Source: a virus
Taxonomy: Duplodnaviria > Caudoviricetes
Length of the DNA stretch: 64,000 nt
Virus record (IMG/VR): IMGVR_UViG_3300041964_000148
Strand: one strand, 5' to 3'
Shown: positions 7,248 to 42,622 of the stretch, piece by piece
Layout of the letters: every line of letters begins with the position of its first letter
Position numbering within the stretch: the stretch's first letter is position 1
Notes under the pieces: generated by a model
Database searches by the model: none
The model's input: the letters and a program-made list of their open reading frames with translations, nothing else
What the model was told of the DNA's origin: nothing
Translations under genes and position numbers: made by a program

Positions 7248-7249
7248 GT

Positions 7250-7865: not shown

Positions 7866-7880
7866 ATTGAGAGCGATCGC

Positions 7881-8603: not shown

Positions 8604-8650
8604 GGCGATCGCTTTATCTAAATATGTCAAGGATTTCAAGAGTTTAATCA

Positions 8651-9124: not shown

Positions 9125-9150
9125 AGCGTACAGCCTCTATCCCCGTTAAT

Positions 9151-9378: not shown

Positions 9379-9436
9379 AGCGATCGCCTACCTTCTAACG
9401 TAAAATCCCCTGGGTTTAGATCCAGGGGATTCCGTA

Positions 9437-14124: not shown

Positions 14125-15189
14125 AAATGATTTTGCCTCACGTTAAAAACCTGGCAAAATCGGTGAAGACTGAGATGTTAACGCCGAGGTAATCAGAGGA
14201 ATTAAAGAGCTTCTGACACCGTAGAGAGTAGAGATTGAACCTAATCCCATCAAGGATAAGACTAGAAAATCTCCACGAGTGCCGGGGCATAGAGCATGGG
14301 TCTATGCAAAACGTACTCCGAACTACATTTTTTGTGGTAGCCCTGATATGATTTTAATGCAAAATCTTGAGGAGCTAATCAATGAAAAATGCGCCATACA
14401 TGGATAAAGAACACCTCAGTTCATTGATAGCTTTAGGTATGACTGCTTCCGAGATAGGTAAACAATATGGTGTTCATAGAGGGACAATCGACTACTGGTG
14501 TAGTAAATTCTCTTTGACTATTTATAAGCAACATGGTCAAAAAAGGATTTATACGTTCGATGAAACTTTTTTCACTTGTATTGACTCAGAAGAAAAAGCA
14601 TACATCTTGGGCTTCATTATGGCTGATGGATTTATTGAAAGCAGTGGCAGAGCGCTCACTATTACCCTAAACAAACGAGACGCTGATTTACTTGAGAAGA
14701 TTAAACAGTGTCTTAAGGCAAATATACCGTTAGCTATCAAAGGAAAGGAAAAGCAGTTCAGGGCTTTAACATTCTGCTCCAAAAGAATTGTGGCAGATCT
14801 TGCACACTTTTCAATTGCAAGAAATAAAACAAAAACCTTGAAGTTCCCTGACTTAGCTAGCCGTCTATATTCCCATTTCTTGCGTGGCTATTTTGATGGA
14901 GATGGACATATAGGCTACCGACAATGTGCCTTAACTGTAGGAAGCGCGAGTTTTCTAGAGGGTTTGTTGAACTTTCTTTGGGAATCGCACGGTTTTAGAC
15001 CGTGGATAGGGAATAGAACAACGTACTATCATTTACAATTCAATAAAAAACAGTCTCCATTTATCAACTGGCTGTACGCCGACGCTAGGATTTACTTGGC
15101 TCGAAAGTATGAGAGGTTTGATACATATTGGCGCAGCGAACATGAAGCTGTAGAACTAGAGGATAAAGAGCCTTTAGGGTAACAAAATG
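14125..15189 (+). ncRNA. Group I self-splicing intron (1065 nt)
   Basis: 5' exon ends in U (GGT) pairing with GCC of P1; IGS AATGATTT complementary to 3' exon AAATCATT (P10); P7 GAGTA/TACTC; terminal G; splicing restores NPCG|EIIG. Confidence 0.9.
14382..15182 (+). CDS. Intron-encoded LAGLIDADG homing endonuclease with N-terminal HTH
   Basis: Two motifs AYILGFIMADG and HFLRGYFDGDG; GAGGAG SD. Confidence 0.88.
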   Translation: MKNAPYMDKEHLSSLIALGMTASEIGKQYGVHRGTIDYWCSKFSLTIYKQHGQKRIYTFDETFFTCIDSEEKAYILGFIMADGFIESSGRALTITLNKRDADLLEKIKQCLKANIPLAIKGKEKQFRALTFCSKRIVADLAHFSIARNKTKTLKFPDLASRLYSHFLRGYFDGDGHIGYRQCALTVGSASFLEGLLNFLWESHGFRPWIGNRTTYYHLQFNKKQSPFINWLYADARIYLARKYERFDTYWRSEHEAVELEDKEPLG

Positions 15190-16323
15190 GAAATCATTGG
15201 CTCCAATTTTCACTGCAACTTATCGGAGGTTCATCTCAATCAAATTGACCCGCACAACTTAAAAGAGCAGGAGGAGGCGTTTACGGTAGGGGCATTAAGC
15301 GTGGCGATACTTCTGCAACACAAGTTCCCAAGTCCTGTCTACCAGCGATCGCGTGAATTAGATCCTATCGTTGGCGTTTCCTGTACCGGGATGTTCGACT
15401 TTTTCGTTAAGCGTTTTGGGTATCGCTGGCTGGAGTGGTGGGAAGCTGGGCGACCAAGACAGTGGGGCAATGAAGTTATGTCACCGTCTCCTGGAGAAAA
15501 TTTCAGTCAATCAACAGTCAATGAATTTGAACATGAATCTGAGTACTTTATTGCTTATGAATCTTGGTATCTAAATTGGTGGCGAGGGATTGTTGAAACT
15601 AAGGTGTGGGAGTATTGCGATCGCAGTAATCTTAAGCGCCCAAATCGCTGCACAACTCTCCAACCTAGTGGGACAAAATCTCTTCTAACCGGGGCATCTC
15701 CCGGCTGGCATCCACCTAAGGGGCAGAGGTTCATTCGTCGGATAACGTGCGATCGGAATGACCCTGTTGCTCTAGCTTGTTTGGACTATGGCTATAAGGT
15801 GGTGCCGGCTCAAGGGGATAAGGATGAAAACGGCTATCTTCTTAACGACCCATTTGACCCCCGCTGTACAGAGTGGTTGGTAGAGATCCCCTGCGAGGTT
15901 TCTTGGGCAAATATGCCTGGGGTTGAAGATATTGATGTTAGTCGATTTAGCGCCCTAGCCCAAATTGATTTCTATATGCAGGTGCAAACGCATTATGTTC
16001 GACATAACACCAGCGCGACTATTGAGCTACGTGAGGAGGAAATTGAGTCTGTAGCCCAGCGAATTTATCAAGCAATCCAAAATGACGAGGGGTATATTTC
16101 CGCCTGCCTCTCAGCCCGATTTGACGCTCACGAGGCATTCCCCAGGTTGCCGTTTGAGCCTATCGACAAGGCGACGTATGAGCAGATGGTGAGGGACGTG
16201 GAAGAGCGACGCATTGTAGAGGATTTCCATGAGGCGTTGGCGAAGCGCCAGGAGGAATCGGCTTATATTCGTAGTTCATCGGGTCCGGCTGGGTGTGATA
16301 GCGACAAGTGCTTGATGTCGTAG
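15190..16323 (+). CDS. nrdJ: Class II RNR, exon 2
   Basis: FHCNLSEVHL, CTTLQPSGTKSLLTGASPGWHP, HNTSATIE, C-terminal GCDSDKC. Confidence 0.92.
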   Translation, partial: EIIGSNFHCNLSEVHLNQIDPHNLKEQEEAFTVGALSVAILLQHKFPSPVYQRSRELDPIVGVSCTGMFDFFVKRFGYRWLEWWEAGRPRQWGNEVMSPSPGENFSQSTVNEFEHESEYFIAYESWYLNWWRGIVETKVWEYCDRSNLKRPNRCTTLQPSGTKSLLTGASPGWHPPKGQRFIRRITCDRNDPVALACLDYGYKVVPAQGDKDENGYLLNDPFDPRCTEWLVEIPCEVSWANMPGVEDIDVSRFSALAQIDFYMQVQTHYVRHNTSATIELREEEIESVAQRIYQAIQNDEGYISACLSARFDAHEAFPRLPFEPIDKATYEQMVRDVEERRIVEDFHEALAKRQEESAYIRSSSGPAGCDSDKCLMS

Positions 16324-28697: not shown

Positions 28698-30530
28698 TTA
28701 ACCAGCGATCGCTCTCATCTGCCGAGCCTCTTCCAGCTCCTGTTTTAATTGCTCAATTTCCCGTTCCTTTTGAGCTAACTGCGCCTCAATTGCCTGTGCC
28801 TGCTCAGAAAGAAACTGTTCATTCAGGATTTTATTCTCGTTCTCCTTCCTGAGTTCTTCATTTTCTGCCTGTAACTCACTCACCTGTAATCGCAGAAGAG
28901 TATTTAGATTTTGTACATTTTCTACCTCCTCCCTGGAAATTTTTTCTGGCTTCTCCCCTGTCTGCTTTCTAGGCTTTGGGTTGAAACGGAACTTGTATTT
29001 GTCCTCCCAGTTCTCCTCGGTGGAAACTGATTTGATCGTTTCAGAGATCGCCTTTTTGGTCAGCTCTGGCGCAGATTCAATAACGAGTTTCTTCGCCTCC
29101 AAAATTTCCTCTTCCTCAGCGTCTCTGAAGGTATCCATCCTTCTCAACTCCAAGGCTGCCGCATCGGACATCCCCTTGACCTTCACCTGAATATCCTGAT
29201 CTACTAGGGGTAGTAACTCACGCCGCTCTTGTTCGGCATTAGCCTTTTCCCTCGCACTGTTGGGACGATAAGGGAATCCTTCCTCGTCGTGAAGGCGCCG
29301 ACACATTTGCTCAAAAGTGCCGTATTCTTGGGACTTCCGGCGATTATCATTCTGGAAAACAACAAACTTGAGTTCCCACAGGTAGTCTGTCACCGCTTCG
29401 GAAAAAGGCTGGCTTATTTCGATCAACTTAACGGCGATCGCCCGACACTTCCTCTCATGTTCTGAGGTAAGGAAAGTCCAGTCCTCGCCCTCTTCCCCTT
29501 CTTCCTCTGTTACCTCTGCAATAGAGTCATCCAACTTCTTACAGTCACTATAAGAAGTTCCATCACTTTCCTCTTCCTCTGTTTCAGGATCTGTCTCAGG
29601 AGCGGCTTCCTCAACTGCTGCCGGTTGTGCAACTACTTCTGTTACTTGTAATTTGCTCACCACAGGGGAGCGTGGCGTAAATTGAAGTAAGTTACTTTTC
29701 GTTGGTTCTGGAGGCGTAAAGATCACTTCAATGGGGGCAAAATCATCTTCCTCTTGATCTTCTTCTCGATCCTCTTCCGGATCATCTAAGAAATCTTCTA
29801 AAAACCGTCCTTCTAGCCCTAACTCTCCCTCTATTTCCGGATATTCTAAGAAGTCTTCTTCGAGTTCTTCTAGGGGTTCTTCTGGGAGCAACTCTTCAAC
29901 AAAATCAGTAATTTCTGAGATTAGTTCCGGCATCGACACTTCGTTTGTCGCCTCAGCCTCTTCAAGAGGCTCAGCCCCAGCCCCCTGAAAAGGGGCAATT
30001 TCATCTTCTACTTCTAGCAATTTATCCAAAAGGGCTTGAGCCTCAGCCTGATCTTTTACAAACTTCGTTGATTGAATAGGATCTTGCCCTTTAATGTCAA
30101 AGCGCATTCCACTGGCAGTTACCGAGGCGATCGCCTTTACTCCCCTAGCCTCTACTGTTTGTTTTTTGGTGGGACGTAGGAACCGATCCTCAACCCACTT
30201 CTTATTCCAATTCCCACTAGGAGAAATAACGTTGCAGTAAGCTTTACCTTTATAAAAATCATCTACAGGATCATGCTGAATCACTTCAGCAAAAAAACCT
30301 GTGTGGTCGCCCCGATCATCGAAAATACTAAGGATTTCCCCAATTTTAAGTTTCTCAACTTCCTTTAAGGAAACTGAAGGTACCCAGTCTACTGTTCGCA
30401 GATCTTTACTGTAATTAGTGAGTTCACAACGAATTTGGTCTTTTTTCCCTTTTTCGATTACACGAGCATAATAGCCCTTATATTGCCCCTTAAGAACGCG
30501 ATTTATAGGACTTGCTGTAGTTGTAGACAT
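28698..30530 (-). CDS. Large acidic protein with C-terminal coiled coil
   Basis: 610-aa ORF; E/D-rich centre. Confidence 0.7.
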   Translation of the reverse strand: MSTTTASPINRVLKGQYKGYYARVIEKGKKDQIRCELTNYSKDLRTVDWVPSVSLKEVEKLKIGEILSIFDDRGDHTGFFAEVIQHDPVDDFYKGKAYCNVISPSGNWNKKWVEDRFLRPTKKQTVEARGVKAIASVTASGMRFDIKGQDPIQSTKFVKDQAEAQALLDKLLEVEDEIAPFQGAGAEPLEEAEATNEVSMPELISEITDFVEELLPEEPLEELEEDFLEYPEIEGELGLEGRFLEDFLDDPEEDREEDQEEDDFAPIEVIFTPPEPTKSNLLQFTPRSPVVSKLQVTEVVAQPAAVEEAAPETDPETEEEESDGTSYSDCKKLDDSIAEVTEEEGEEGEDWTFLTSEHERKCRAIAVKLIEISQPFSEAVTDYLWELKFVVFQNDNRRKSQEYGTFEQMCRRLHDEEGFPYRPNSAREKANAEQERRELLPLVDQDIQVKVKGMSDAAALELRRMDTFRDAEEEEILEAKKLVIESAPELTKKAISETIKSVSTEENWEDKYKFRFNPKPRKQTGEKPEKISREEVENVQNLNTLLRLQVSELQAENEELRKENENKILNEQFLSEQAQAIEAQLAQKEREIEQLKQELEEARQMRAIAG

Positions 30531-31213
30531 AGTTGGCTCTCTGTTGTTTGTATTTGGTTATCAACTTGCACTGGTATATCTAGACCGAGAAACTTGTTGT
30601 GCCCGCGAACGACCGCTCTGTTGTTCCGGTGATGTAATGCTGATGCTCCATCTAGGGCGATCGCTTCTTCATGTACCCCAGGTTCGCCCTTCCTGGGAGA
30701 AGTGGTGTAACCCTTGTGCTGGGCTAAACCGTACATGGAAAACTGAGGCCAGGACGCAAGGCGAGTGATTAGTTCGTCGCGCCATTCTTTGGCAATAATC
30801 GACGCAGCAGCGATCGCACAAATTTTGGTATCCCCTTTTATCACTGCCGATTGCCGACGCTTACCTATTCCTGGGATGAGGTTGCGTCCATCAACAAAGA
30901 TTTGATCAGCATTGATATTAAGCCCTTCAACCGCCCGCTTCATTGCCAAGAGGGATGCTCGGCAAATATCGCCTTCGTTAATTTCCCTGACTGAGCCTAC
31001 GCCAATCTTGTAACGCCCTATCTCCTTGAGTAAGGGGACAAGAACAGAGCGTTGTTTTGGGGAACGTTGTTTTGAGTCCCTCCCCTCGTACTTGCCCCAT
31101 TCCAGTACCTTTTCCAACTCCTGAAGATGTTCGGGAAGCGGACTATAGGCACAAGCTACGACAGGACCAAAGGCGGGCCCTAAGCCGACTTCATCTACGC
31201 CAATTAAAATCAT
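30503..31213 (-). CDS. rnhB: Ribonuclease HII
   Basis: GVDEVGLG, DSK, VDG, KGD, IAAASIIAK, HKGY. Confidence 0.88.
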   Translation of the reverse strand: MILIGVDEVGLGPAFGPVVACAYSPLPEHLQELEKVLEWGKYEGRDSKQRSPKQRSVLVPLLKEIGRYKIGVGSVREINEGDICRASLLAMKRAVEGLNINADQIFVDGRNLIPGIGKRRQSAVIKGDTKICAIAAASIIAKEWRDELITRLASWPQFSMYGLAQHKGYTTSPRKGEPGVHEEAIALDGASALHHRNNRAVVRGHNKFLGLDIPVQVDNQIQTTESQLCLQLQQVL

Positions 31214-31400
31214 CAGAACACCTCCGATGCGGGAAACTCAGTGTCCTTAGATCTGAGAGGAACGCACGGTAGCGGTTTTAACCGCCTACAGTCTTTAGAA
31301 TCCATATCCATAACCATCCTTTTGGTGAATTTGCTGACAATATTTATATTTTCTCCGTCACGGTTCTCCGTGATGAATGTAATGAACTGCTGCCAGTGCC

Positions 31401-32654
31401 TTACGGCTCAGGCAGTTTCTGACGCTTCTTTTCCCACGCTTGCTGAAAGCCTCCACAATGTTTAGTTGTGGGTTTTTCAGTAGAGGCTTGAGATCCACGT
31501 TTGTCGAGCGTCGTTCCAACGCCCGTTGCCCATATTAGGCAAACTTTAGCTGAGGCTACATCTCTGTCTTCGACACAGCCGCAAGGACATTGATGTAGTC
31601 GTTCAGCCAGTGTTTTAGGTTTGACTTGCCAGCAGTCAGGACATCGTTGAGAAGGCTTGAGTGTCTTAGTTGGAGCTTTCAGAAATACCCCATCAGCTTC
31701 ACCTAATTTGTACTCCAGCATTCCCCCCAAAATTCCCCAACCTACATCCAAAATGGAGCGGTTTAGCCCAGACTTCTGTCGCTTCCGCTTTCCCTTCTTG
31801 GCTTTTTTAGTCATCCCCTTGATGTTGAGTTTCTCTGTCACGACCATGCTGTTACTGCTTACTATCTGTGTCGTGACCTGATGCGCCCAGTCTTGACGTT
31901 GATTAGTCGCTTTGCGCTGCAACTTATTGACTTTAGACTGAGCTTTTTTCCAGCGTTTTGATCCCTTAATCTTTTTCTTGAAATTGGGGCTACGTTTCCG
32001 ACGCTTCTGTTTAGATGCCGCTCTGATTTTCTCTTGAGTTGCACCCAAGAAGCGAGGATTTTCTATTTTGGTTCCATCGCTACAAGCGACGGCTGTTAGA
32101 GTGCCAAAATCAATGCCAATTGCACCCGTTCCGGTTTCTCGGACTGGCTCACATTTGACGGTGATTGAGGCATACCATTTGCCTTGTCGGTACACGATGG
32201 TGCAAGTTGTTGGGATTCCCCAAGTTCTTGCCTTTCCTCTCATCTGAATTTGCCCTAAGTTAGACAGTTCCAGATAGCCGTTGTCACCCGTGGTGTGTGC
32301 TTTCCAACCAGGTGCCGCTGGGTAAGTCCATCCACTATAACGACGAATTGACTTGAATCGGGGGTATCCTCCCAAGCCTTTGAAGAACCGCTCGTAAGCC
32401 ATGTCAACCCGTTTAAGGGTAGCCTGTAGGGCTTGGCTTCCTAGCTCTTTGTACTCTGTCCAGACCGTCTTGAACTCAGGTAATGAGTTTTGTTGGTCGT
32501 AGTAGGTAACTGATTTCCCAAAACGTTGATATTGCGTCTTCTTGTTGTACAGCGCTGCATTATAAAGGTCTTTATGTAAACGCCTCCAATAGCTCAACTT
32601 TTGGGCTTGAGCAATGGAAGGATAAAGACGAAAGGTGCAACGACGGGTTATCAT
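31401..32654 (-). CDS. tnpB: RNA-guided endonuclease TnpB
   Basis: FRLYP HTH, RuvC D (GIDFG), E (VTEKL), D (DRDVAS), CPDC..CPCG. Confidence 0.92.
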   Translation of the reverse strand: MITRRCTFRLYPSIAQAQKLSYWRRLHKDLYNAALYNKKTQYQRFGKSVTYYDQQNSLPEFKTVWTEYKELGSQALQATLKRVDMAYERFFKGLGGYPRFKSIRRYSGWTYPAAPGWKAHTTGDNGYLELSNLGQIQMRGKARTWGIPTTCTIVYRQGKWYASITVKCEPVRETGTGAIGIDFGTLTAVACSDGTKIENPRFLGATQEKIRAASKQKRRKRSPNFKKKIKGSKRWKKAQSKVNKLQRKATNQRQDWAHQVTTQIVSSNSMVVTEKLNIKGMTKKAKKGKRKRQKSGLNRSILDVGWGILGGMLEYKLGEADGVFLKAPTKTLKPSQRCPDCWQVKPKTLAERLHQCPCGCVEDRDVASAKVCLIWATGVGTTLDKRGSQASTEKPTTKHCGGFQQAWEKKRQKLPEP

Positions 32655-32682
32655 GATGCCAGTATAACGTCAGAGTAAGGTC

Positions 32683-32826
32683 ATGAAGAAGCTAACTGTT
32701 CGATTTTCTGATAGCGAGTACAAGAGCCTGACTCAACAGAGTATTGATGTTGAGCGTTCTCTGAACGAGATTGTCCGAGAAGCCGTTAGAGAATATATAA
32801 AGAATCAGACTTCCCCACAGCATTGA
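32683..32826 (+). CDS. 47-aa ribbon-helix-helix protein inside the IS
   Basis: MKKLTVRFSDSEY..L......ERSLNEIVREAVREY; below the ORF-track cutoff. Confidence 0.65.
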   Translation: MKKLTVRFSDSEYKSLTQQSIDVERSLNEIVREAVREYIKNQTSPQH

Positions 32827-32854
32827 TTCGCTTTCATCCCCCAGTGCCTTCGGC

Positions 32855-33982
32855 TCAGGGGGATTTCCCGCTCACACTTGTTAAGCGTTCTTTGAGTACA
32901 GCAAATGCGATCGCTCCCACCTGAGGGACAATGGCATTTCCCAATACAGATACCTGGCTGTTCATGAGACCTCGTGCCTCCATATACTCTTTTAGAGTTT
33001 GGTCAAACTCTTGCTTGAGTTCTTGATATTCGCTTGCGCCCTCTCCTTCAAGGCACTCAGCTTGTCGATCAAATTTTTTGTGGTAGGCTCGCTTGAGTTG
33101 ATCATACTCTCTTCGATCTGCTGGTGATAGGGCTTTAATTTCTCTTGGAGAAAGTTCAACCGAGCCACGAGGCTCCCTTGTAAAACTGGGCATTGTGGAT
33201 GCGGTGAGCCACCCATCAAGGTCTGGGTGTCGCAAGAGATATCCGCCCAAGTTGGCGGGTAGCCCATCATCGCTGCCACAAAGTAAGGGTTGAGGGTAGT
33301 GTCCTTTGTCGTTAAATTCAGTAGGGAGTACTTTCTCCTGTTTTTTGCCTCCGCCACTGAGCCGCCCCGTGAGAGACCGGCTGTTGGCGTAGGCAATAAT
33401 CCATATTCGCGCTCGAAGGTGGGTTCCTCCCACTCCAATGCGGAATCTTTTTTCTTTACCTCGGCTAGAGCCTGTTTCCAAATGGGCGCATGGTACAGTT
33501 CCCCATTCGACATCGAACCCCAGCTCGTCCAGGTCTCGCAAAATTCCCTTGAAAAATTCTCCAGATTCGGAAGATAGCAATCCAGGGACGTTTTCCAGCA
33601 CCGCCCATCTGGGCTGAACTTCGCGAAGGATTCGCCGAATCTCAGGCCATAAGTCCCGCTCGTCTTCCGAAGCCTTTTTCTTGCCGAGGACTGCGTGGGG
33701 TTGGCAAGGGAAGCCGCCGGAGATTCCGTCGATCCTAGGGACTCCCAATTGTCGAAGAGATTCAACTGTAACATCGCATACATTTTTAATTAAAGGAATG
33801 CCAGGGAACCTAAGTGACAACAATTCTTGGCAGTAATCATCATTATCACATACAGCAACTGTCTCAAGTCGAAGATCATTGTCATCCCCTTCTCTACTAA
33901 TGGATTCTGCCAGGAGGAATCCTCCTCCTCCAGAACACAAATCCAACACGTAGTGGGTGTTCTCGTCCTGTAATAGCTTCAT
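32855..33982 (-). CDS. C5-cytosine DNA methyltransferase, alpha chain (motifs I-VIII, X)
   Basis: DLCSGGGG, GGFPCQ, ENV, R.RIWI, GNAIVP; no motif IX in this frame. Confidence 0.85.
   Translation of the reverse strand: MKLLQDENTHYVLDLCSGGGGFLLAESISREGDDNDLRLETVAVCDNDDYCQELLSLRFPGIPLIKNVCDVTVESLRQLGVPRIDGISGGFPCQPHAVLGKKKASEDERDLWPEIRRILREVQPRWAVLENVPGLLSSESGEFFKGILRDLDELGFDVEWGTVPCAHLETGSSRGKEKRFRIGVGGTHLRARIWIIAYANSRSLTGRLSGGGKKQEKVLPTEFNDKGHYPQPLLCGSDDGLPANLGGYLLRHPDLDGWLTASTMPSFTREPRGSVELSPREIKALSPADRREYDQLKRAYHKKFDRQAECLEGEGASEYQELKQEFDQTLKEYMEARGLMNSQVSVLGNAIVPQVGAIAFAVLKERLTSVSGKSP
32992..33774 (-). CDS. Nested alternate-frame beta chain (TRD plus motif IX)
   Basis: LLPTPTA...LNPYFVAAMMGYPPTW; conserved with 34083-35003. 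Confidence 0.72.
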   Translation of the reverse strand: MLQLNLFDNWESLGSTESPAASLANPTQSSARKRLRKTSGTYGLRFGESFAKFSPDGRCWKTSLDCYLPNLENFSREFCETWTSWGSMSNGELYHAPIWKQALAEVKKKDSALEWEEPTFEREYGLLPTPTAGLSRGGSVAEAKNRRKYSLLNLTTKDTTLNPYFVAAMMGYPPTWADISCDTQTLMGGSPHPQCPVLQGSLVARLNFLQEKLKPYHQQIEESMINSSEPTTKNLIDKLSALKERAQANIKNSSKSLTKL

Positions 33983-35208
33983 TTTTCCTCCTTAAGTGCT
34001 GACAAACGTTCCTTAAGTACAGCAAATGCGATCGCTCCGACATGAGGGACAATCGCGTTCCCGAATATCGATAGCTGGGTATTTATTGCCTTTTTAAGTT
34101 CTTTGTACTCGTTAAGCTTGAGCAAGAATTGCTCCTGGAATTGGCAATATTGGTTTGCGCTCTCTCCTTCAAGGCACTCAGCTTGTCGATCAAATTCCTT
34201 ATCGAAGGCTCGTTTGAGTTTCTGATATTCGCTTCGATCTTCTGGTGAAAGGGATCTAATTTCTCCTGGAGTGAGTTCAATTGAACAACGCACCTGCCGA
34301 AAGAAGCAGGGGATTGTGGATGCGGTGAGCCACCCATCAAGGTCTGGGTGTCGCAAGAGATATCCGCCCAGGTTGGGGGGTAGCCCATCATCACCGCCGA
34401 AAGGTAAGGATTGAGGCATCTGCTCTCTTGATGTGGGGTCATCAGCCGGACAAAGCGACTCAACCCCACTGACCCATTTACTCCTTGGTTGCTGATCTTC
34501 CTTGGTGTTCCATTTCTTGTGAAATAGATCTTCGTATTCTCGTTGAAGACCGCCGCCATTGTGGCATCGGATGCCGTTGGGGTAGGGATCAGGGTTTTGA
34601 TGATTTGTCGCAGCCCCTTCCCCTTGAAGGTGGCGGTAAGCGACAATCCAGACTCGCTCTCGGAGATGAACTCCTCCAGCTCCAATAAACTCGTTAGGGC
34701 TTGCTTCCATATAGGCGCAGGAAATAACTCCCCACTCAACATCAAACCCCAGTTGGGCAAGATCTCCAAATATTCCTCGTAGGAACCGTCCAGCGTCCGT
34801 TCTAAATAGCCCTGGGACATTTTCAAAAACCGCCCAGATGGGCTGAACTTCGCGAAGGATTCGCCGAATCTCCGGCCACAAGTCCCGTTCGTCTTTAGAG
34901 CCTTTTTTCTTGCCGGCGACGCTATGGGGCTGGCAGGGGAATCCGCCGCAAATTCCGTCGATTTTGGGGATTCCCAATTGTCGAAGAGATTTAGTTGTGA
35001 CATCGGATATATCTGGGATGACAGGGATGTGGGGAAATCTTAGCCTTAATACATCCTGACAATTTTCGTTGTTATCGCACACAACTACCGTCTCCAGCCG
35101 CAGGGCGTTTTTAGCCTGCTGGGAGATGGCTTCCGCTAGGATAAATCCTCCTCCTCCAGAGCATAAATCCATTACGTAGTGGATGTTTTCGTCATGTGAC
35201 AGGCTCAC
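33979..35208 (-). CDS. C5-cytosine DNA methyltransferase, alpha chain (paralog)
   Basis: DLCSGGGG, GGFPCQ, ENV, RERVWI, GNAIVP. Confidence 0.85.
   Translation of the reverse strand: MSLSHDENIHYVMDLCSGGGGFILAEAISQQAKNALRLETVVVCDNNENCQDVLRLRFPHIPVIPDISDVTTKSLRQLGIPKIDGICGGFPCQPHSVAGKKKGSKDERDLWPEIRRILREVQPIWAVFENVPGLFRTDAGRFLRGIFGDLAQLGFDVEWGVISCAYMEASPNEFIGAGGVHLRERVWIVAYRHLQGEGAATNHQNPDPYPNGIRCHNGGGLQREYEDLFHKKWNTKEDQQPRSKWVSGVESLCPADDPTSREQMPQSLPFGGDDGLPPNLGGYLLRHPDLDGWLTASTIPCFFRQVRCSIELTPGEIRSLSPEDRSEYQKLKRAFDKEFDRQAECLEGESANQYCQFQEQFLLKLNEYKELKKAINTQLSIFGNAIVPHVGAIAFAVLKERLSALKEEK
34083..35003 (-). CDS. Nested alternate-frame beta chain (TRD plus motif IX)
   Basis: 306-aa open frame wholly inside alpha; PTPTASD...LNPYLSAVMMGYPPTW. 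Confidence 0.75.
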   Translation of the reverse strand: MSQLNLFDNWESPKSTEFAADSPASPIASPARKKALKTNGTCGRRFGESFAKFSPSGRFLKMSQGYLERTLDGSYEEYLEILPNWGLMLSGELFPAPIWKQALTSLLELEEFISESESGLSLTATFKGKGLRQIIKTLIPTPTASDATMAAVFNENTKIYFTRNGTPRKISNQGVNGSVGLSRFVRLMTPHQESRCLNPYLSAVMMGYPPTWADISCDTQTLMGGSPHPQSPASFGRCVVQLNSLQEKLDPFHQKIEANIRNSNEPSIRNLIDKLSALKERAQTNIANSRSNSCSSLTSTKNLKRQ

Positions 35209-35848
35209 TTTTTACCTCCACGACAGAGGAACATGGGAGACTTTTTTGTCCCGGAATCGTGCCTATAAAGCTGTTCCAAGCGTCCAAATCGGTTTTGATG
35301 ACATCCAGTTGCTTTGGATCTTTAGCCTCCCAGCGCACTGCCTTAACCCCTCCAGGAAAATGAAATTCAACGACCAAGGGGTTCAACTCATACCCACCCC
35401 AGCATCTTGTAAAACTGATCCCAGGAAATAGTTCTAGTAAGTATTTTTGCGCCTTGTCTTTTTCTTCTTGAATCCTCTTGGACTTAGCATTGAAGTCTGC
35501 TTGGCAGTCTCGACTACAAAACGCGACCTTTCTATTGAACTTCGGTTCTAGAGGTTCCCAACGCTCATCCTCCTCTTCATTGTTTTTGGACACGTTACAA
35601 AAGCAATGAGGACACTCAAAAGTCCAACCATCGTTGTACAGGATCTCCGCTGGGACATACCCCAGTGCCGCGTAGTGATCGTATTCAGGTAGCCGCTCAA
35701 CCTTGAGGATTTCCGGTTCACTCCACAATTTACAGGCTCCTGCCACCGCCGCTTGCGCTTTTTCTAGGGCAAAAACAATATCCGCCCCCTCTTCCTCATC
35801 TTCCACATACCAAGCTACTGAAGCTGTCGGATTCACTAAATCATTCAT
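35192..35848 (-). CDS. Hypothetical phage protein with Cys motifs
   Basis: GWTFECPHC...FCS..C. Confidence 0.6.
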   Translation of the reverse strand: MNDLVNPTASVAWYVEDEEEGADIVFALEKAQAAVAGACKLWSEPEILKVERLPEYDHYAALGYVPAEILYNDGWTFECPHCFCNVSKNNEEEDERWEPLEPKFNRKVAFCSRDCQADFNAKSKRIQEEKDKAQKYLLELFPGISFTRCWGGYELNPLVVEFHFPGGVKAVRWEAKDPKQLDVIKTDLDAWNSFIGTIPGQKSLPCSSVVEVKSEPVT

Positions 35849-36719
35849 AATTTGTCTCCGTCACGGTTCTCCGTGATGAACTATCTAACTGGTATTTTTT
35901 GATCAATAAATCCAACTTGTCGGCGATAAAGTTGGGATAGCACATCTCCTGTGCGCCATCAAAGACCGTCCATAACTGCCACCAAGCCGTTAGATCCATC
36001 TCTCCTTCGCGCTCTAGAAAAATATCGGCTTCCTCTTCCACCCCATAGGCATTAAGGCTGTAGAACAAAGGGGCAGAACAGCGATCGCAAACTCTCCGAC
36101 CATCGGCTATTTCCAGGCTGAACCTGTGAGGCTTGATTGTGTAGTAGGAACTACTCCACCAATACCCCCACTGGCAAAGTCTCCACAGAGTATCTGCAAG
36201 CTTATAATGCTGCCGGGATAGCAACATACAGGCGTAAATCAAGCTACTCCGAGTTCGGGTTATGAAACTACTTGCACAATCCCAGCAGTATTCTTCCCCA
36301 GTATCTTTGAGGAACCGCTGGTCGAGGTAATAAGGGTCTGAGATATTCACCCCCCTGGATAGCTCCTGAAGTCGCTCAAAAGCTTCCTCAAGTCTAGACA
36401 CTCGCTCTGGTGATGCATTTCTCTTGGGATAAACATCATGCTGCAACCAAACTTTGGCTGCCCTAATATCTACGATCAGGTCTTTGACTAGGTAAAGGAA
36501 CCTGTCCCCCGCAGGGATTCTTGGAGGGGTGATTTGTTCACGCAGTAGTTGCGATCGCGTTGCGAGGTTTGCTAAATCAAACCCACTCAAATCCAACCAA
36601 GGGTATAGGGGTTCATAGGTGCGAACCTTCCGCCGGGATTCTTCCTGCTCAACTATTTCAATTTCGGAACTTATTCGGTTTAATTGCCGGATTAACGTGT
36701 CTAAGACTGGTGATCTCAT
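35841..36719 (-). CDS. Hypothetical protein with CxxC pairs
   Basis: CWDC, CDRC; operon member. Confidence 0.6.
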   Translation of the reverse strand: MRSPVLDTLIRQLNRISSEIEIVEQEESRRKVRTYEPLYPWLDLSGFDLANLATRSQLLREQITPPRIPAGDRFLYLVKDLIVDIRAAKVWLQHDVYPKRNASPERVSRLEEAFERLQELSRGVNISDPYYLDQRFLKDTGEEYCWDCASSFITRTRSSLIYACMLLSRQHYKLADTLWRLCQWGYWWSSSYYTIKPHRFSLEIADGRRVCDRCSAPLFYSLNAYGVEEEADIFLEREGEMDLTAWWQLWTVFDGAQEMCYPNFIADKLDLLIKKYQLDSSSRRTVTETNYE

Positions 36720-36753
36720 TTTTACTTTGTCATGAACCTCTGTTGTGTAGCTT

Positions 36754-38352
36754 TTAGAACTCGTAGATTGCTATTATTCTTCCCTGCTCGTCATAGTCGG
36801 CACAGTACTCCTCGTTTTCCTCAATAAACTTCTGAGCTTGGGTTTGGACAGATATATCAACTCGAAACACCGAGTCTTCCAGCGCTGCTTTTAATCGGTC
36901 GAGAACTGCCTCAGGTGAAGATGGTGGCGGAGCCTTGGGCAAAGTTCGCTTCCGAGCTAGCTCTGCTATCTGCTGGAATATTAGCTTTGAACCCGCAGCG
37001 GCGTGTTGTTGATCTTCCTCTGTTATTTGCTTTGGTTTCCACTCGTTATGATTTTCTACGCCTTGTGGCAGGACAGGGGTTTTTGTAATGTCTCGTCCTG
37101 ACAGTGTTTCGGATTTGGATACCCCTGTTTGAGGCATTGGTGATCGCACAGCTTCTAGATTGGTCTCTAGATACTCCTTCTCATCGTCAGGTACAACTCC
37201 ACCACTGGCTATACGCTGTGCAGCACTTTCATAGTGGTGGTTGAAGGTTAGAGAGTAGGTTCTCCACCTCAAAGAAATTTTGTCTGGTTCATTAAAGAAA
37301 TTACTAATGACAGCTTCTTCGGCATCATAAACGGACGAGTATGTCCACTTCTTCATCCACTCCTGAGCTTTCCATCTGACAAACTCACCCTTAAACTCGT
37401 TATTTCGATTTAGCCAGGGTGTCTCACCTTCACAGTACACAAGGTTAGGATGCACCTCGCGCCTTCGATCCTGCCTCCACTTTGTAGATTCAGAGACTTT
37501 TTTATCTGTTATCACAGCAGCGGCGGAATTTTTATCTTCACCAGGAGTTTCTATTGCTTGCAAAGGAATGACCTCAATTTGTGGATCTTTTGACAGGGTG
37601 TTGCTTGGAGTTTCTTCTTCCGGTTCCGGAATCTCAAATCCAAATTGCTTTTCTTTCGCAGCCCTAGGGTTATTGCCGATAGATCTTGGATTGGTTCCAA
37701 CAGCCCTAGGGTTATTACCGATAGCTCTTAAATTAGTTCCATCTTCTCTTTTTCCTGATTTACTTCCCCCTTCTTTTTTTTCCCCGCTTGCGGGGTTAGG
37801 GGGGTTGATCTGATGAATAGATCTAATTTCTGATCTATTCATAGATGATGGTCCACCCAGCGGATGCTCCATCATCTCCTGGGTGGATGGTCGATCATCC
37901 TCTGAGTGGATACTCTCATTTTCAGGATCATCCATTTTTGGCACTATCTGATTTCTCGACGTTACAGCCGTTTTAGAGGCATTCATGATTAACTCACCGA
38001 TTGTCTCTGGATTGGGTCTGTAAAACTTAGTTTGATTCCATTGACCCGATAAAAACTGACCCGATATCAAGTAACCCTTATCTTCAATATTTAAAAGTAG
38101 CCGTTGAAGTTTGCGGGGGTTCCCCAAGCACGGATACATCTCACTCCACTCTTGGTAAGTGGCAGCAGTCCACCACTCGTCATCGTGGTAGTACTTTTCC
38201 CTGCCAGTGATCGCATTGTTTTGACACCAATCTTCTATGATTTCAAGTAGCAAAGCCTCAAGTACTCCAATTTGGTTCGCCATTCCCCACACCAGCTTGG
38301 TAAAAGGAAGACGATGGAGGGACTTGTAGGCAGCTACAGCAGCCGTAGTCAT
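36754..38352 (-). CDS. Putative phage replication initiator
   Basis: N-terminal wHTH-like region (W...TY.EW....P.....R.L..L...GYL...TKFYR) followed by a low-complexity, repeat-bearing linker. Confidence 0.55.
   Translation of the reverse strand: MTTAAVAAYKSLHRLPFTKLVWGMANQIGVLEALLLEIIEDWCQNNAITGREKYYHDDEWWTAATYQEWSEMYPCLGNPRKLQRLLLNIEDKGYLISGQFLSGQWNQTKFYRPNPETIGELIMNASKTAVTSRNQIVPKMDDPENESIHSEDDRPSTQEMMEHPLGGPSSMNRSEIRSIHQINPPNPASGEKKEGGSKSGKREDGTNLRAIGNNPRAVGTNPRSIGNNPRAAKEKQFGFEIPEPEEETPSNTLSKDPQIEVIPLQAIETPGEDKNSAAAVITDKKVSESTKWRQDRRREVHPNLVYCEGETPWLNRNNEFKGEFVRWKAQEWMKKWTYSSVYDAEEAVISNFFNEPDKISLRWRTYSLTFNHHYESAAQRIASGGVVPDDEKEYLETNLEAVRSPMPQTGVSKSETLSGRDITKTPVLPQGVENHNEWKPKQITEEDQQHAAAGSKLIFQQIAELARKRTLPKAPPPSSPEAVLDRLKAALEDSVFRVDISVQTQAQKFIEENEEYCADYDEQGRIIAIYEF
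37659..37742. repeat. Tandem 21-bp units (ABAB, 2 x 42 bp) encoding G(T/N)N(P/L)R repeats
   Basis: CAGCCCTAGGGTTATT(G/A)CCGA / TAG(A/C)TCTT..ATT.GTTCCA. Confidence 0.8.
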
Positions 38353-38405
38353 GAATTCTCCTTGTTATATCGTCTGGTTTTGTAGGTACTTTGATGAATG
38401 ATGTA

Positions 38406-39044
38406 TTACAACAATTCCTTTTGCATGACAAGTAAAACAAATGCCTCTATTAGCCCAAGGACGTAATAGTAAATTTCCTCAAATACGGCTTCCTCAAAAC
38501 CGTAAAGATAAAAAGAGGATTTAACTCTTTCTGGTACCACGCTTGTAAGAAAAGGATACGCTTGCTCTAGCTGCCCCCTTTCTGTCACTACACCATAAGC
38601 CCTTGAGATTAGGTCGTGGAACCCAGAAAGGTGGGCTTCGGTAAATTTGTGATCAATTGGATCTCCTGCGTGATCTGTCAGTAGGTTTTTAAGGAATTCC
38701 TTGAACCAGCCTTCGATAACTGCCATATTGACCACTGATCCAACGCAAAATGCGGCGAGATTGGCTTTCCTCTCTTCTTCATTAAATTCAAACCAATCGC
38801 CACGAACCCGATATTCTTTTAAAAGCCTATGCCAGTATGTCTCGTCAGATGGGGCGTCCACTGTCCAAAACGAATCGATAATTTTCAGTGGATAGGGCGA
38901 TTGATTTTGTAAAGTCTGGTGTCTCGCTATAGGTTTAACGCTGCGCCCAATCTTGTAGCGATTGGTTCCAACTGCGTGAATCAAATAAACCCAGCCTTCA
39001 CGTCCTACTGAAATATCCTCTAGTCTTATTATTTTGCCCATCAC
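38406..39044 (-). CDS. GIY-YIG / T5orf172 (MUG113-like) domain protein
   Basis: GWVYLI...YKIGRS..P..R...LQ..SP...E...H......RGDWF. Confidence 0.75.
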   Translation of the reverse strand: MMGKIIRLEDISVGREGWVYLIHAVGTNRYKIGRSVKPIARHQTLQNQSPYPLKIIDSFWTVDAPSDETYWHRLLKEYRVRGDWFEFNEEERKANLAAFCVGSVVNMAVIEGWFKEFLKNLLTDHAGDPIDHKFTEAHLSGFHDLISRAYGVVTERGQLEQAYPFLTSVVPERVKSSFYLYGFEEAVFEEIYYYVLGLIEAFVLLVMQKELL

Positions 39045-39096
39045 AAAACCTCTTTGGCGATCGCCAGTGTAATTGCATCAATAGGATCGTCAATAT

Positions 39097-39291
39097 TCAT
39101 CCTTTACCTCCTGACACGTCTTCTGCCTGCACATTGATCGCCGTGCAGTGTTTATGGGACTTGCTAAACTCCTTGCTCATAGCTAACCAGAGTTCTAGAG
39201 GCACTGGAGTGTTGGGCTGATAATGCCCGCCACATCGCTTGCACCTAAAGTCTAAATTTGGGGTTGTGACAACCCAATCTTGTTTACTCAT
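39097..39291 (-). CDS. Small Cys/His protein
   Basis: CKRCG...HKHC; ATGA-coupled. Confidence 0.5.
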   Translation of the reverse strand: MSKQDWVVTTPNLDFRCKRCGGHYQPNTPVPLELWLAMSKEFSKSHKHCTAINVQAEDVSGGKG

Positions 39292-39596
39292 CCTTCTCCC
39301 TCTGCATCCACTGCATTTAATCGAGCATCCAACTCTTCCTGGCTCTTGATGTCCCCAAGCAACTCTGTGCTGTTAACATCAATGCCTATTCTGGTGAGAT
39401 GCTCTGTGAACAGTTGTTGCACTTCCGGCTCACAGTGCGCCATCGCATCTACCCATGTTGGGCTTCGCTTGTTAGCGTTGGCAAATGTGAATCGGTAGTA
39501 GAATGAGGTCGCATCGTGCGGGGACTCAGGAGAATGCTCGACCGCACAAATTCTGCATTTATTTGGGGCAGGAGGTACTACTTGCCAGTCGGTCAT
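39288..39596 (-). CDS. Hypothetical phage protein
   Basis: C..CA..H....PH...S.YY...PTW.DA.AHC; AGGAGG SD. Confidence 0.6.
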   Translation of the reverse strand: MTDWQVVPPAPNKCRICAVEHSPESPHDATSFYYRFTFANANKRSPTWVDAMAHCEPEVQQLFTEHLTRIGIDVNSTELLGDIKSQEELDARLNAVDAEGEG

Positions 39597-40391
39597 GCCA
39601 AACCTCCTACAGCGATTTGCTGCAAGTAGATATCTTGGATCATTTTGCTATTCCTTTTAGTGCAAACTTTTTTCCGCATACTGGGGCGGAAGTAGAGTTC
39701 TAAAATTAAGAACTTCATTGGAACAAATCTGAATACTTGTCGGCAAGGCAAAAAATGCCCTATAATACTTTCCATAGCGCTCCGCTTATCGCAATTAAGT
39801 GGACTTAACTCGCTTCCTGAAAGGCCTCTTTAGATGGTCAGATCTAAAGCCCCGCCTGGGAGCGAATCTTTTCAAAAATGATAGCACATTCTTTGTGTGT
39901 GGATTTATGCAAGCAAGAAGGCTTCGCTCTTGCATACCTGCCCAAAAAACTGTACTATTAAATACTGAAGGCACTAATGCGCCTCGAAGAAAAAGCATAT
40001 ATTAATCCTTAGATGCAGACACCCCTCGGTGTCTTTTTTTTGTTTATATAGGAATTTTAGGCTTACCTCGGAAAATGGGCAACCCTTTTTTAACTATGCC
40101 CACGCGATCGCTTGGGGTTACAGTACCGCGTTACAATCTTCGTCTAACATTTCATTCGATATGGGGGTGATAGGTAGAATTATGTGTTTGCAGAAACTTG
40201 GTTAAGTACAGTTCTGGCGATTGTCACTAAAGGCAAAAAAACTCTGAAGACGTTACAGGATTAGGGTTTTGGCGGCTGGCAGTTTGAGGTAAAAGTAATT
40301 GACCACCCAACTCTCGCCTTTATTTATGCGATCGCACTTCACCTGGGTTGATGTTACAATCCGGGAAGTCTTGTGAAAAATTTATCGCATT

Positions 40392-41237
40392 ATGCAAACC
40401 AAAAAGAATTCCTCAGCGGCAGACCGCAAGGATGTTGCCTTGCTCTTTACGTCGGATTTAATCGAAGCCCTTCTCAAAGGAACGAAAACCCAGACCCGCA
40501 GAATAATCAATCCTCAGCCTGTCCTAGAAGACGGGATTTGGATGTGGAAGCGAAAAGGTGAAACCCCCATTCCGTTAGTGAATCAATCCTTGTCCATGCT
40601 GGCAGAAAGTCGGTATCAGGTAGGTGATCGCCTCTACGCTAAGGAGTCGATGTATCTCGACAAGGACGATCTCGGCGAGGGCGACTGTTGGTATTACGAT
40701 TTAGATAAGAAGAAAGTTATGGTTTCGCGGGAAGACGAAGGAGCCATGCTTGCCTGGGCGCACCATAAGCAGACGACTACTCAAAGCGCTCTATTCATGC
40801 CGCGATGGGCAGCCCGAACTTGGAGGGAGATTGCAGAAGTTAGCGTTCAGCGTATAGGTGATATCAGCGAGGAAGATGCGATCGCCGAAGGGATTGTCCC
40901 ACTGATATACAGGGCTTCAGCCGAAGGACACTATGTTCGCTACTATCATTACGAGTATCAGACGTACCATACAACCTACGACGGGGACGGGGCGCGGCAA
41001 AGCTTCCGAACACTCTGGAACCAAATCAACGGAAAATGGACAGCCATTCGGAAGAACATGGACGGCGGCGAAACCAAAAAAAAGGAGTTGTCGCATTATA
41101 TTTCGTACCCTTGGAATGAGGAGGATATTAAGGACAAACCCGATGTTCGTAACAAAAATATCCCTTTTCTCGCTTGCCCGAACCCTTGGGTCTGGGCGAT
41201 AAAATTCACCACGGTTCTCCGTGACGAAGGAAAATAA
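40392..41237 (+). CDS. ASCH/PUA-like phage protein
   Basis: L.G.KTQTRR, GDRLY.KE, FMPRWAAR, DA.AEG, NPWVW. Confidence 0.7.
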   Translation: MQTKKNSSAADRKDVALLFTSDLIEALLKGTKTQTRRIINPQPVLEDGIWMWKRKGETPIPLVNQSLSMLAESRYQVGDRLYAKESMYLDKDDLGEGDCWYYDLDKKKVMVSREDEGAMLAWAHHKQTTTQSALFMPRWAARTWREIAEVSVQRIGDISEEDAIAEGIVPLIYRASAEGHYVRYYHYEYQTYHTTYDGDGARQSFRTLWNQINGKWTAIRKNMDGGETKKKELSHYISYPWNEEDIKDKPDVRNKNIPFLACPNPWVWAIKFTTVLRDEGK

Positions 41238-42622
41238 TGATTTTCGCATCTCTTTTCTCTGGGTTTGGATTGGCAGATATCGGAGCCAAATTGGCAGGTT
41301 GCGAATTGGCTTGGGGGATCGAATTGGATGAGGCGATCGCAGAAATTTCTCGCCAACTAGGACACCGAGTCCTGTGCCAGTCCGTAACCGAAACTGATTT
41401 TAGTAAGCTGGAAAAGCCCGACATTCTTTGGGTTTCCCCACCGTGCCCAAATTTTTCTGTGGCAAAGCAGGGCGCTAAAGAAACTGCCCTCGACATTGAG
41501 CTAGCTAATGCTGTAGTTAATGCGATTTCAATCCTAGAGCCGAAATATTTCATCTTGGAAAATGTCGAGGCGTACAAGCGAAGCAAATCCTTGAGAATCA
41601 TTGAGGACAAGCTTTACAGCCTTGGCTACTGGATTGATCGGCAGGTATTTAATTCTGCTGATTTTGGGGTTCCTCAAACTCGCAGACGTTTAATTGTCCG
41701 TGCGGTTAGGCATGGCTTCGTTCCGCAAATGCCCCAAGCGCAAAGCTGGTTAGGCTGGTATCAAGCTATAGAAGACCTTTTGCCAGATCTCCCAGAAACA
41801 ACGCTTGCAAAATGGCAAAGGGATAGGCTGGGGGCTGCTTTTGAAAAAGGACAGGATATTGATGGGGACTTGTGGATCGGTGGCTCAAACTGCTCGGAAA
41901 GTTTCTTGCAGTTTGCCATAGATAATCGCCCAACTATCCCTGGGATAAGGAAAAGGGGGCAGCCGTTGCCTACAATTCCTGCCGATGTCGCCACCAATAG
42001 TAAGGCTAGAGCAATTCTAGTTCCTGGAGGAAATGCAAGTAGTTTTCCTATCCGTGCAGACCACCAACCGGCTGCAACCGTCGGAGATACACATCGGACG
42101 GGGAATAGACCAAAAGCTGTCCTTGTCTGTGGTATTGGAAACAGAGGAGAATCTTTGTCAACCCGACAAGACGAGGAGCCAGCTCTCACTGTTACAGGTG
42201 GGCATCAAGCTCTAAGAGCTATGCTCATCCAATCCAAAAACCCCAATCAGGAGTATGGGAACGGAATAAGGGAAGGTGGAGAACCTGCCCAGACTGTAAT
42301 CACAGATGGCAAACCTAGTCACCAATTAAAGGCGGTACTGATCGATGTCAGCAATATAATTCGTGATTGTACTGTCCGACAGATGGATGAGCCATCGTTT
42401 ACCATTACAGCCGAAAAGATGCGTCGCCCAATTTCAACCCCAAAGGCGATTCTGGAATCGGCAAGAATTGTGCAAATGAGTTCTCGCTGTCTGGCACGGT
42501 TTCAAACCTTGCCGGATTGGTACGAACTTCCCGTTAAAAATGCTTTAGCTTGCAAGGGGATTGGGAATGGAGTCCCTTGTAATATGTCCGAACAAATCGT
42601 GCGATCGCTAATAGGAAGTTAA
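41237..42622 (+). CDS. C5-cytosine DNA methyltransferase with repeated TRD-like units
   Basis: SLFSGFG, SPPCPNFS, ENV, QTRRR, ARFQTLPD, IGNGVP. Confidence 0.88.
   Translation: MIFASLFSGFGLADIGAKLAGCELAWGIELDEAIAEISRQLGHRVLCQSVTETDFSKLEKPDILWVSPPCPNFSVAKQGAKETALDIELANAVVNAISILEPKYFILENVEAYKRSKSLRIIEDKLYSLGYWIDRQVFNSADFGVPQTRRRLIVRAVRHGFVPQMPQAQSWLGWYQAIEDLLPDLPETTLAKWQRDRLGAAFEKGQDIDGDLWIGGSNCSESFLQFAIDNRPTIPGIRKRGQPLPTIPADVATNSKARAILVPGGNASSFPIRADHQPAATVGDTHRTGNRPKAVLVCGIGNRGESLSTRQDEEPALTVTGGHQALRAMLIQSKNPNQEYGNGIREGGEPAQTVITDGKPSHQLKAVLIDVSNIIRDCTVRQMDEPSFTITAEKMRRPISTPKAILESARIVQMSSRCLARFQTLPDWYELPVKNALACKGIGNGVPCNMSEQIVRSLIGS

Follow-up and report, generated by a model that had tools for sequence, protein, structure and literature searches.

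A tandem pair of cytosine C5 methyltransferase genes in a caudoviricete record, each enclosing a conserved +1-frame gene for a probable DNA-reading chain

The DNA analyzed here (the window) is a stretch of 64,000 nucleotides (nt) from the IMG/VR virus record IMGVR_UViG_3300041964_000148 (Duplodnaviria; Caudoviricetes), and between its positions 32,855 and 35,208 it carries two tandem genes for C5 DNA cytosine methyltransferases, each of which wholly contains a second open reading frame (ORF) on the same strand. The outer chains are called alpha2 and alpha1 and the nested ones beta2 and beta1. The features of the locus are the following.

33979-35208, minus strand: alpha2, C5 methyltransferase large-domain chain, 409 amino acids (aa), GTG start (from the ORF listing)
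35215-35219, minus strand: Shine-Dalgarno sequence (GGAGG) that lies 6 nt upstream of the GTG of alpha2 (read from the sequence)
35143-35169, 34927-34947, 34807-34824, 34648-34668, 34378-34392 and 34045-34062, minus strand: alpha2 motifs I, IV, VI and VIII, the DDGLP element and motif X, in that order
34393-34623, minus strand: alpha2 spacer (residues 196-272), which is what the DNA of the beta2 recognition module encodes in the alpha frame; predicted to be disordered, and variable among relatives
34083-35003, minus strand: beta2, nested +1-frame chain of 306 aa, begins MSQLNLF, wholly inside alpha2; its N-terminal domain is followed by one 'B' recognition module, then by motif IX and a helical extension at the C-terminus
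34416-34592, minus strand: beta2 recognition module 'B', PTPTASDA...NENT...NGTPRK.SNQGV.GSVGLSRF
34368-34415, minus strand: beta2 motif IX, LNPYLSAVMMGYPPTW; the same DNA in the alpha frame is the conserved DDGLP..LGGYLL element
34060-34325, minus strand: dual-coded helical extension of copy 2, alpha2 residues ~314-383 and beta2 residues 227-306 on overlapping DNA
32855-33982, minus strand: alpha1, second large-domain chain, 375 aa, ATG start (from the ORF listing)
33917-33943, 33698-33718, 33578-33595, 33401-33421 and 32924-32941, minus strand: alpha1 motifs I, IV, VI, VIII and X
32992-33774, minus strand: beta1, nested +1-frame chain of 260 aa from the conserved MLQLNLF start, wholly inside alpha1
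33295-33396, 33247-33294 and 32995-33204, minus strand: beta1 'C'-like recognition module, motif IX and C-terminal extension

The alpha chains have the large domain of a C5 methyltransferase and little else. In both of them motifs I, IV (with the catalytic Cys of PCQ), VI (ENV) and VIII are ordered on one chain, the sequences being GGFPCQP for motif IV, ENVPGL for motif VI and GNAIVP for motif X; the latter, at residues 383-388 of alpha2 and 348-353 of alpha1, is invariant in our alpha alignment (A3). The two alphas are 54% identical. Pfam PF00145 matched alpha1 (E 5.9e-29) over profile positions 3-149 of 324 only, and alpha2 (E 1.2e-33, residues 12-208) over positions 3-180 only. A target recognition domain (TRD) and motif IX on the same chain, between motifs VIII and X, were missing from both alphas and were found only in the +1 frame. 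In the same way, the alpha profile matched M.HhaI over residues 12-175 (E 1.6e-42) together with a weak motif X match in a PDB profile search, and Foldseek aligned the alpha2 model to the large domain only of M.HhaI (E 4.5e-14 over ~210 columns). When alpha2 was folded alone with AlphaFold2, the predicted local distance difference test score (pLDDT) was high for residues 1-195 and 311-409 and below 50 for residues 199-310; the spacer segment could not be aligned among the alphas. The alpha1 ATG overlaps the alpha2 stop codon (ATGA), and an AAGGAGG at 33987-33993 precedes alpha1.

Both betas lie in the +1 frame relative to their alpha, with start offsets of 199 nt (copy 1) and 205 nt (copy 2). 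In beta1 a second in-frame ATG at 33783 gives an ORF of 263 aa (32992-33783), the conserved ATG of MLQLNLF being that at 33774. PTPTA and LNPY....MMGYPPTW were found in both chains. The motif IX/DDGLP stretch has 94% DNA identity between the two copies, and it is mainly between PTPTA and LNP that the two betas differ. These results bear out what the initial annotation had described, that is, alphas with motifs I-VIII and X lacking a TRD or motif IX, and nested same-strand ORFs of 260 and 306 aa that start M(L/S)QLNLF and carry PTPTA and LNP...MMGYP.

The betas matched the PHROGs family phrog_1008, 'DNA methyltransferase', and an ESM Atlas feature search with beta returned nothing usable. The comparison of the beta profile with the conventional methyltransferase of the window by hhalign gave no significant match, nor did P0030 match anything in Pfam, so motif IX was anchored through a related locus, L019, instead. 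The alpha frame of L019 matches positions 3-321 of the 324 of PF00145, and its LNP....LMGYP segment matches the beta profile; as this segment sits inside a full-length PF00145 match, the beta motif is tied to Pfam motif IX. The beta sequence DSPASP (in beta1, SLANP) results from reading the DNA of the catalytic alpha motif GFPCQP in the +1 frame (34926-34943 and 33697-33711), so that conservation of the beta N-terminal domain is partly forced by alpha, and this domain may have originated by overprinting.

The coexistence of two open frames, which the initial annotation had pointed out for both paralogs, was confirmed to exceed chance. Shuffling synonymous codons while preserving alpha led to about 8 stops in the beta frame, and of 3000 shuffles per copy, one left this frame stop-free in copy 1 and none did in copy 2; shuffles that preserved beta gave 9-12 stops in the alpha frame and were never stop-free (0/3000). 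The third sense frame has 16 and 24 stops in the two copies, and 23 stops interrupt the +1 frame of the control, a conventional C5 methyltransferase gene of the same window (41237-42622). Taken alone, the beta C-terminal extension has a chance of being stop-free that is not small (0.11-0.18 per sequence), so its openness says little, and the case for the beta extension rests on conservation and on codon-position data.

The latter were obtained as pairwise divergence per codon position among five clade members (both window copies, L062, L064 and L066). In this arrangement the alpha wobble position is the second position of beta, and the beta wobble position is the first position of alpha.

Alpha-only regions: alpha wobble 0.57-0.58; alpha first position 0.25-0.26 (there is no beta frame here)
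Motifs IV-VIII / beta N-terminal domain: alpha wobble 0.33; beta wobble 0.25
Alpha spacer / beta TRD: alpha wobble 0.24; beta wobble 0.45
DDGLP / motif IX: alpha wobble 0.18; beta wobble 0.27; remaining position 0.05
Helical extension: alpha wobble 0.37; beta wobble 0.36

By this pattern beta is under purifying selection over its whole length. Over the spacer/TRD segment divergence is highest at the beta wobble position, so that beta is the constrained, dominant frame there. Judged from these substitutions, both frames are under purifying selection.

The nested layout is widespread. A beta-only peptide pattern led to 52 IMG/VR loci, and in 52/52 alpha motifs I-VIII are in one frame and beta in the next (f and f+1). 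Among 56 non-duplicate loci, the beta-frame ORF has 117-514 codons (median 241) and the alpha frame is stop-free across beta in 51, with 6-31 stops in the +2 frame; the usual frames in the family are 0 for motif IV, +1 for motif IX and 0 for motif X. The start of most betas, M..QL.LF, lies ~15-35 codons upstream of the point where motif IV is read in +1, and in L066 the alpha residue at the beta start has changed from D to N with the +1-frame ATG retained. The same alpha/+1-beta layout was found in L001, L002, L059-L062, L064 and L066. One of these, the Bacteroides phage BS-TP4 (L060), is a complete genome with the plain layout in which only alpha is annotated. Free-standing beta-like proteins are also among the beta2 homologues; the contigs of two proteins, P0005 and P0007 (L001 and L002), hold a nested pair. 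The beta profile matched 49,419 representative proteins at E<=1e-3 and 9,758 at E<=1e-30, those sampled being unnamed or 'hypothetical', and tblastn of beta2 gave 2 weak records in phages and 6 in plasmids. Given that all 52 phage loci and every close relative looked at share the layout, it is a property of a very large family and not a peculiarity of the window locus. An uninterrupted beta frame in homologs was what the initial annotation required of its proposal, and its warning that standard annotation would miss the betas also held, since RefSeq, GenBank and JGI gene calls for the relatives list alpha only. Our literature searches found no description of a family-wide nested layout.

Several members deserve a separate mention. 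L059 is the Nostoc flagelliforme CCNUN1 plasmid pNFSY06, where RefSeq annotates only a 'DNA cytosine methyltransferase' at 111876-112889; its alpha motif IV reads PCPDF rather than PCQ, and an unannotated +1 ORF of 244 codons has the start MTSQLSLF, PTPKA, a motif IX variant and a C-terminal extension. In the variant L003 alpha ends after motif VIII, and beta has the N-terminal domain, TRD, IX and X, still overlapping alpha motifs IV-VIII. In L001 (region 5937-9503) the beta ORF, of 511 codons, starts before the alpha gene and continues for 330 nt beyond its end, with a long additional region at the C-terminus; a gene for a 656-aa protein with a Dam-type (MethyltransfD12) domain abuts this ORF with an overlap of 4 nt. 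Lastly, three Bacteroides-phage-like loci (L004 3001-4289, L006 2298-3469 and L042 2485-3302) have indels that lead to other frame combinations, for instance motifs I-III joined to the beta frame, or pieces spread over three frames. For L004 and L006, phase variation or programmed slippage was considered and rejected as unsupported: the complete BS-TP4 genome has the plain layout where these two differ by indels, which are therefore probably assembly errors or mutations.

The TRD region of beta is modular in the family. Each beta has 1-5 modules, all starting (L/W)PTP(T/x)A (alignment A4, L001-L066), and module types recur between cyanobacterial and Bacteroides phage loci. The 'B' module was found in L001, L002, L062, L064, L066, P0006, P0008 and L012; beta2 consists in this region of one 'B' module, the type common to all close relatives, and beta1 of one degenerate 'C'-like module. 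In L066, whose syntenic gene is single, one chain holds B and then C, L001 and P0006 have B, D and C, and single-module betas of 162-190 aa are common in phage loci. These arrangements suggest that cassettes are shuffled by recombination at the repeated PTPTA-coding words. A deletion between two such repeats would remove one module and keep both frames, and beta1 looks like the product of such an event. The divergence between PTPTA and LNP that the initial annotation had singled out thus corresponds to different recognition modules, and since the betas hold different modules (B and C-like) the two enzymes probably methylate different sequences.

Prediction of the alpha-beta complex, which had been proposed as a check in the initial annotation, supports binding of alpha2 to beta2. 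The prediction from alpha2 (alignment A3) and beta2 (A4) scored 0.86 and the best of 3 controls 0.00; the score mark is reached by 58 of 80 solved complexes and by 2 of 110 mismatched pairs, counts that hold only roughly here because the alignments were our own. The runs agreed in at least 68% of contacts, with a partner pLDDT of at least 62. The lowest-error predicted contacts join alpha residues 378-388 (motif X) to beta residues 199-208 (motif IX), and further low-error contacts join alpha 156-159 and 180-181 to beta 85-88, 139 and 205. Additionally, alpha 324-371 is predicted to touch beta 227-289, helical segments that are encoded by overlapping nucleotides and that were also predicted to be helical in the chains folded alone. 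The model of beta2 alone, with a mean pLDDT of 60, was too uncertain for a fold search. The gap between motifs IX and X is 350 nt here versus 60-90 nt in most phage loci, and the helical extension is specific to the cyanobacterial clade.

We also examined how the tandem could have arisen. Close relatives (55-61% identity) are syntenic, with a gene of ~290 aa (123-130 aa in L066 and L067), the methyltransferase, RNase HII and a gene of ~470-550 aa; they have one methyltransferase gene, also nested, where the window has two. The alpha2-alpha1 junction is present in an independent metagenome contig (L068, 91% identity), and in another (L069, 99.8% DNA identity) alpha1 is followed directly by RNase HII and the following insertion is lacking.

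31382-32880, minus strand: TnpB (IS605 OrfB-type) insertion between alpha1 and the RNase HII gene (Pfam OrfB_IS605, Cas12f1-like_TNB)

BLAST of L069 against the window indicates that the insertion replaces the last codons of alpha1. The two contigs together show that the tandem is real and that TnpB is a later insertion. The alpha tree places alpha1 and alpha2 as sisters (support 94/94) and gives alpha1 a long branch (0.5), which fits a local duplication with faster change in copy 1. With beta inside alpha, duplicating the specificity chain necessarily duplicates the catalytic chain. Identity between the paralogs at the predicted interface is 64% versus 61% elsewhere in alpha and 64% versus 54% in beta, which is uninformative on pairing; given an interface that is neither more nor less conserved, together with the 94% identity of the motif IX/DDGLP stretch, cross-assembly of the chains seems plausible.

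Altogether, we consider it likely that each unit consists of an alpha (frame 0) and a nested beta (+1) that form a two-chain C5 methyltransferase, with beta supplying the DNA-reading half. Alpha would be the catalytic large domain, with the S-adenosylmethionine-binding and catalytic motifs I-VIII, a disordered spacer and motif X. Beta would be translated from a conserved internal ATG ~20 codons upstream of motif IV, with its N-terminal domain overprinted on alpha motifs IV-VIII and followed by a PTPTA-led recognition module and then by motif IX, and would thus provide the small DNA-reading domain that alpha is without. The two chains could then assemble into an M.HhaI-like enzyme, probably active only as a heterodimer, through contacts of beta motif IX with alpha motif X and of the beta N-terminal domain with the edge of the alpha VII-VIII sheet, to which the cyanobacterial clade would add a helical bundle with both halves read from the same DNA in two frames. 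The tandem units would be translationally coupled and would come from a local duplication that copied alpha and beta together. With the third, conventional C5 methyltransferase (41237-42622), they could protect a phage- or plasmid-like element from host restriction.

Several observations weigh against this interpretation. Neither beta start is preceded by a recognizable Shine-Dalgarno sequence, as both alpha starts are, and a promoter and terminator scan gave no internal promoter signal above the shuffled expectation. The betas have no match in Pfam, NCBIfam or the PDB (tried as a profile and as fragments), and the N-terminal domain of beta2 had a pLDDT below 50 when folded alone. Since the chains make up the two halves of a known fold, for which many single-chain structures have been solved, the success of the complex prediction may partly be the model's memory, in addition to the reservation on its calibration made above. 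Furthermore, in L019 (2454-3497), L020, L021 and L023 motif IX is read in the alpha frame, and +1 is left to the TRD modules alone. The +1 ORF of these loci (148-178 codons) encodes the PTPTA modules, and a TRD-only second chain or recoding would both fit.

Recoding could also be invoked at the window locus, where a single polypeptide would read alpha motifs I-VIII, shift to +1 for the module and motif IX, and shift back for motif X. Such a product would have the motif order of a normal C5 methyltransferase (I-VIII, TRD, IX, X), as the DNA does, and the L019-type loci with only the TRD out of frame as well as the metagenomic variants L004 and L006, which join the pieces in other frame combinations, lend themselves to it. 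However, two opposite frameshifts would be required, a beta frame with a conserved start ATG stays open and conserved over the ~100 codons upstream of where a shift could first be useful, and the alpha frame is open through the whole TRD in 51 of 56 loci; recoding needs neither of these open stretches, which counts against it. In addition, the two metagenomic variants are probably errors or mutations when set against BS-TP4, and M.EcoHK31I works as separate chains from separate plasmids (PMC2836561), so we regard a recoded polypeptide as very improbable. Just as improbable in our judgement is that the beta frame yields no functional protein, in which case alpha by itself would be the enzyme, or a non-specific one lacking a TRD, and constraints acting on alpha or on the DNA would keep the +1 frame open as a side effect. 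The absence of beta from curated protein-family libraries and the PDB, the lack of Shine-Dalgarno sequences before the beta starts and the part of the N-terminal similarity that is forced by alpha (DSPASP as the +1 reading of GFPCQP) all speak for it. In contrast, it does not account for the ~8 beta-frame stops of alpha-preserving shuffles or the 23 of the control methyltransferase, nor for spacer substitutions that concentrate at the beta wobble, which makes beta and not alpha the constrained chain in a region where alpha is unalignable and predicted to be disordered, nor for modules and a motif IX conserved between cyanobacterial and Bacteroides phage loci.

A different question is whether only copy 2 works, alpha1/beta1 being a duplicate in decay and without most of its former recognition region. 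The long alpha1 branch (0.5) beside its sister alpha2, a beta1 that lacks the B module of all close relatives and has a degenerate C-like one, a 3' end struck by the TnpB insertion and syntenic relatives that manage with one gene are consistent with decay. Nevertheless, both frames of copy 1 are intact where 8-9 stops would be expected, all catalytic motifs are retained, the gene has its own strong Shine-Dalgarno sequence and coupled start, single-module betas (162-190 aa) are common in phage loci, and the pair persists in two other samples (91% and 99.8% identity); we therefore find decay of copy 1 unlikely. Returning to two working alpha/beta enzymes, the observations could be joined in a broader and still tentative picture, which we hold to be possible rather than probable. 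Beta would be an exchangeable specificity subunit for a generic alpha (compare HsdS of type I enzymes), and the PTPTA-led modules would be independent cassettes gained and lost by recombination at the PTPTA-coding words. The tandem would be an L066-like B+C enzyme split by duplication and reciprocal module loss, with chains that still cross-assemble, and the clade-specific helical 'zipper' would have evolved to hold the chains together.

Regarding the neighbourhood, the following features were located near the pair.

41237-42622: third C5 methyltransferase, conventional and of 461 aa, with motifs IX and X in the same frame of a single chain; a DUF5131 protein comes next (span to 43587)
36754-38352: replication-initiator-like protein
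35192-35848: phrog_8514
38406-39044: T5orf172 protein

The element thus carries three cytosine methyltransferases. Other neighbours are a ResIII helicase, RNase HII, Rep_1 and an endolysin-like protein, and a second TnpB gene lies at 52440-53711. No restriction endonuclease family was found among the neighbouring ORFs scanned against Pfam and PHROGs, and megablast of window positions 30000-40000 against plasmids gave no match. Judging by this context, we would take the element for a cyanobacterial phage or plasmid and its methyltransferases for orphan enzymes that serve self-protection. Elsewhere in the window, at 12883-16323, an ORF of 415 aa matches only fragments of ribonucleotide reductase (alpha domain, class II insertion domain); an ORF of 378 aa beside it had no match and another of 266 aa also adjoins, and the region may be a split or interrupted ribonucleotide reductase gene.

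These data have consequences for how such genes are read. M.EcoHK31I has been seen as an exception, and in the family of the window locus a nested second chain is the rule (~49,000 representative proteins matched by the beta profile). Annotation then under-reports the protein that probably sets the sequence methylated by these mobile-element enzymes, and the alpha 'variable region' would be the wrong place from which to predict specificity. The tandem pair is also a natural experiment in one genetic background, with two alphas, two single-module betas and a syntenic relative that has both modules, and with it one can test directly if beta is the seat of specificity, if the modules act independently and if subunits can be exchanged. 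For the evolution of overlapping genes, it offers a long and clean case of two proteins predicted to interact, partner helices included, that are encoded on the same nucleotides.

The closest known system is M.EcoHK31I of E. coli HK31, which recognizes YGGCCR (Lee, Kam and Shaw 1995, as described in PMC2836561, PMC3404938). Its beta is nested in the alpha gene in another frame, alpha has motifs I-VIII together with X, beta motif IX (PMC2836561, PMC3404938); both chains are needed (PMC2836561, PMC3404938), the beta N-terminus matters for association (PMC2836561), and the enzyme is cited as an exception among C5 methyltransferases (PMC3404938). The window units resemble it in having betas wholly within the alpha genes on the same strand in another frame, in the distribution of motifs I-VIII and X to alpha and IX to beta, and in a predicted interface that includes the beta N-terminal domain. 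The nesting and the place of motif IX that the initial annotation had taken from this precedent are thus found here, whereas the window beta would supply the whole small domain and an N-terminal domain, not motif IX alone. The TRD of M.EcoHK31I has been placed in alpha (PMC2836561, PMC3404938), while in the window it is beta that has the recognition modules, the alpha 'variable region' being a spacer predicted to be disordered; as the comparison with M.EcoHK31I drew on its published description and not on its sequence, which is a further point to be held against our interpretation, this difference may be real or may reflect the positional assignment of 1995. The window betas are also longer (260-306 aa versus 176), with a C-terminal helical extension, and there are two units in tandem.

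M.AquI of Agmenellum quadruplicatum, which recognizes CYCGRG (Karreman and de Waard 1990, as described in PMC3404938), has motifs IX and X on its second chain, the first chain ending within the variable region (PMC3404938). Like the window enzymes it is a natural two-chain cyanobacterial C5 methyltransferase with the large-domain motifs and motif IX on different chains, but motif X is back on the alpha chain in both window copies; the relative L003 has the M.AquI-like split. With M.HhaI and other single-chain C5 methyltransferases (PF00145; PDB 10mh, 2z6q and others) the locus shares the alpha large domain and a predicted packing of motif IX on motif X that fits the single-chain fold. In contrast to them, the small domain is a separate polypeptide from the +1 frame, and the beta N-terminal domain and the helical bundle have no counterpart in the solved structures compared. 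The multispecific C5 methyltransferases of Bacillus phages (SPR, phi3T and rho11s types) are single chains with a variable number of tandem recognition modules. The betas of the window family likewise carry 1-5 PTPTA-led modules of types common to distant loci, here on one chain of a probable two-chain enzyme. The principle of a nested two-chain enzyme is therefore not new; new here are the tandem arrangement, the partition of the modules between two betas and the dual-coded helical extension.

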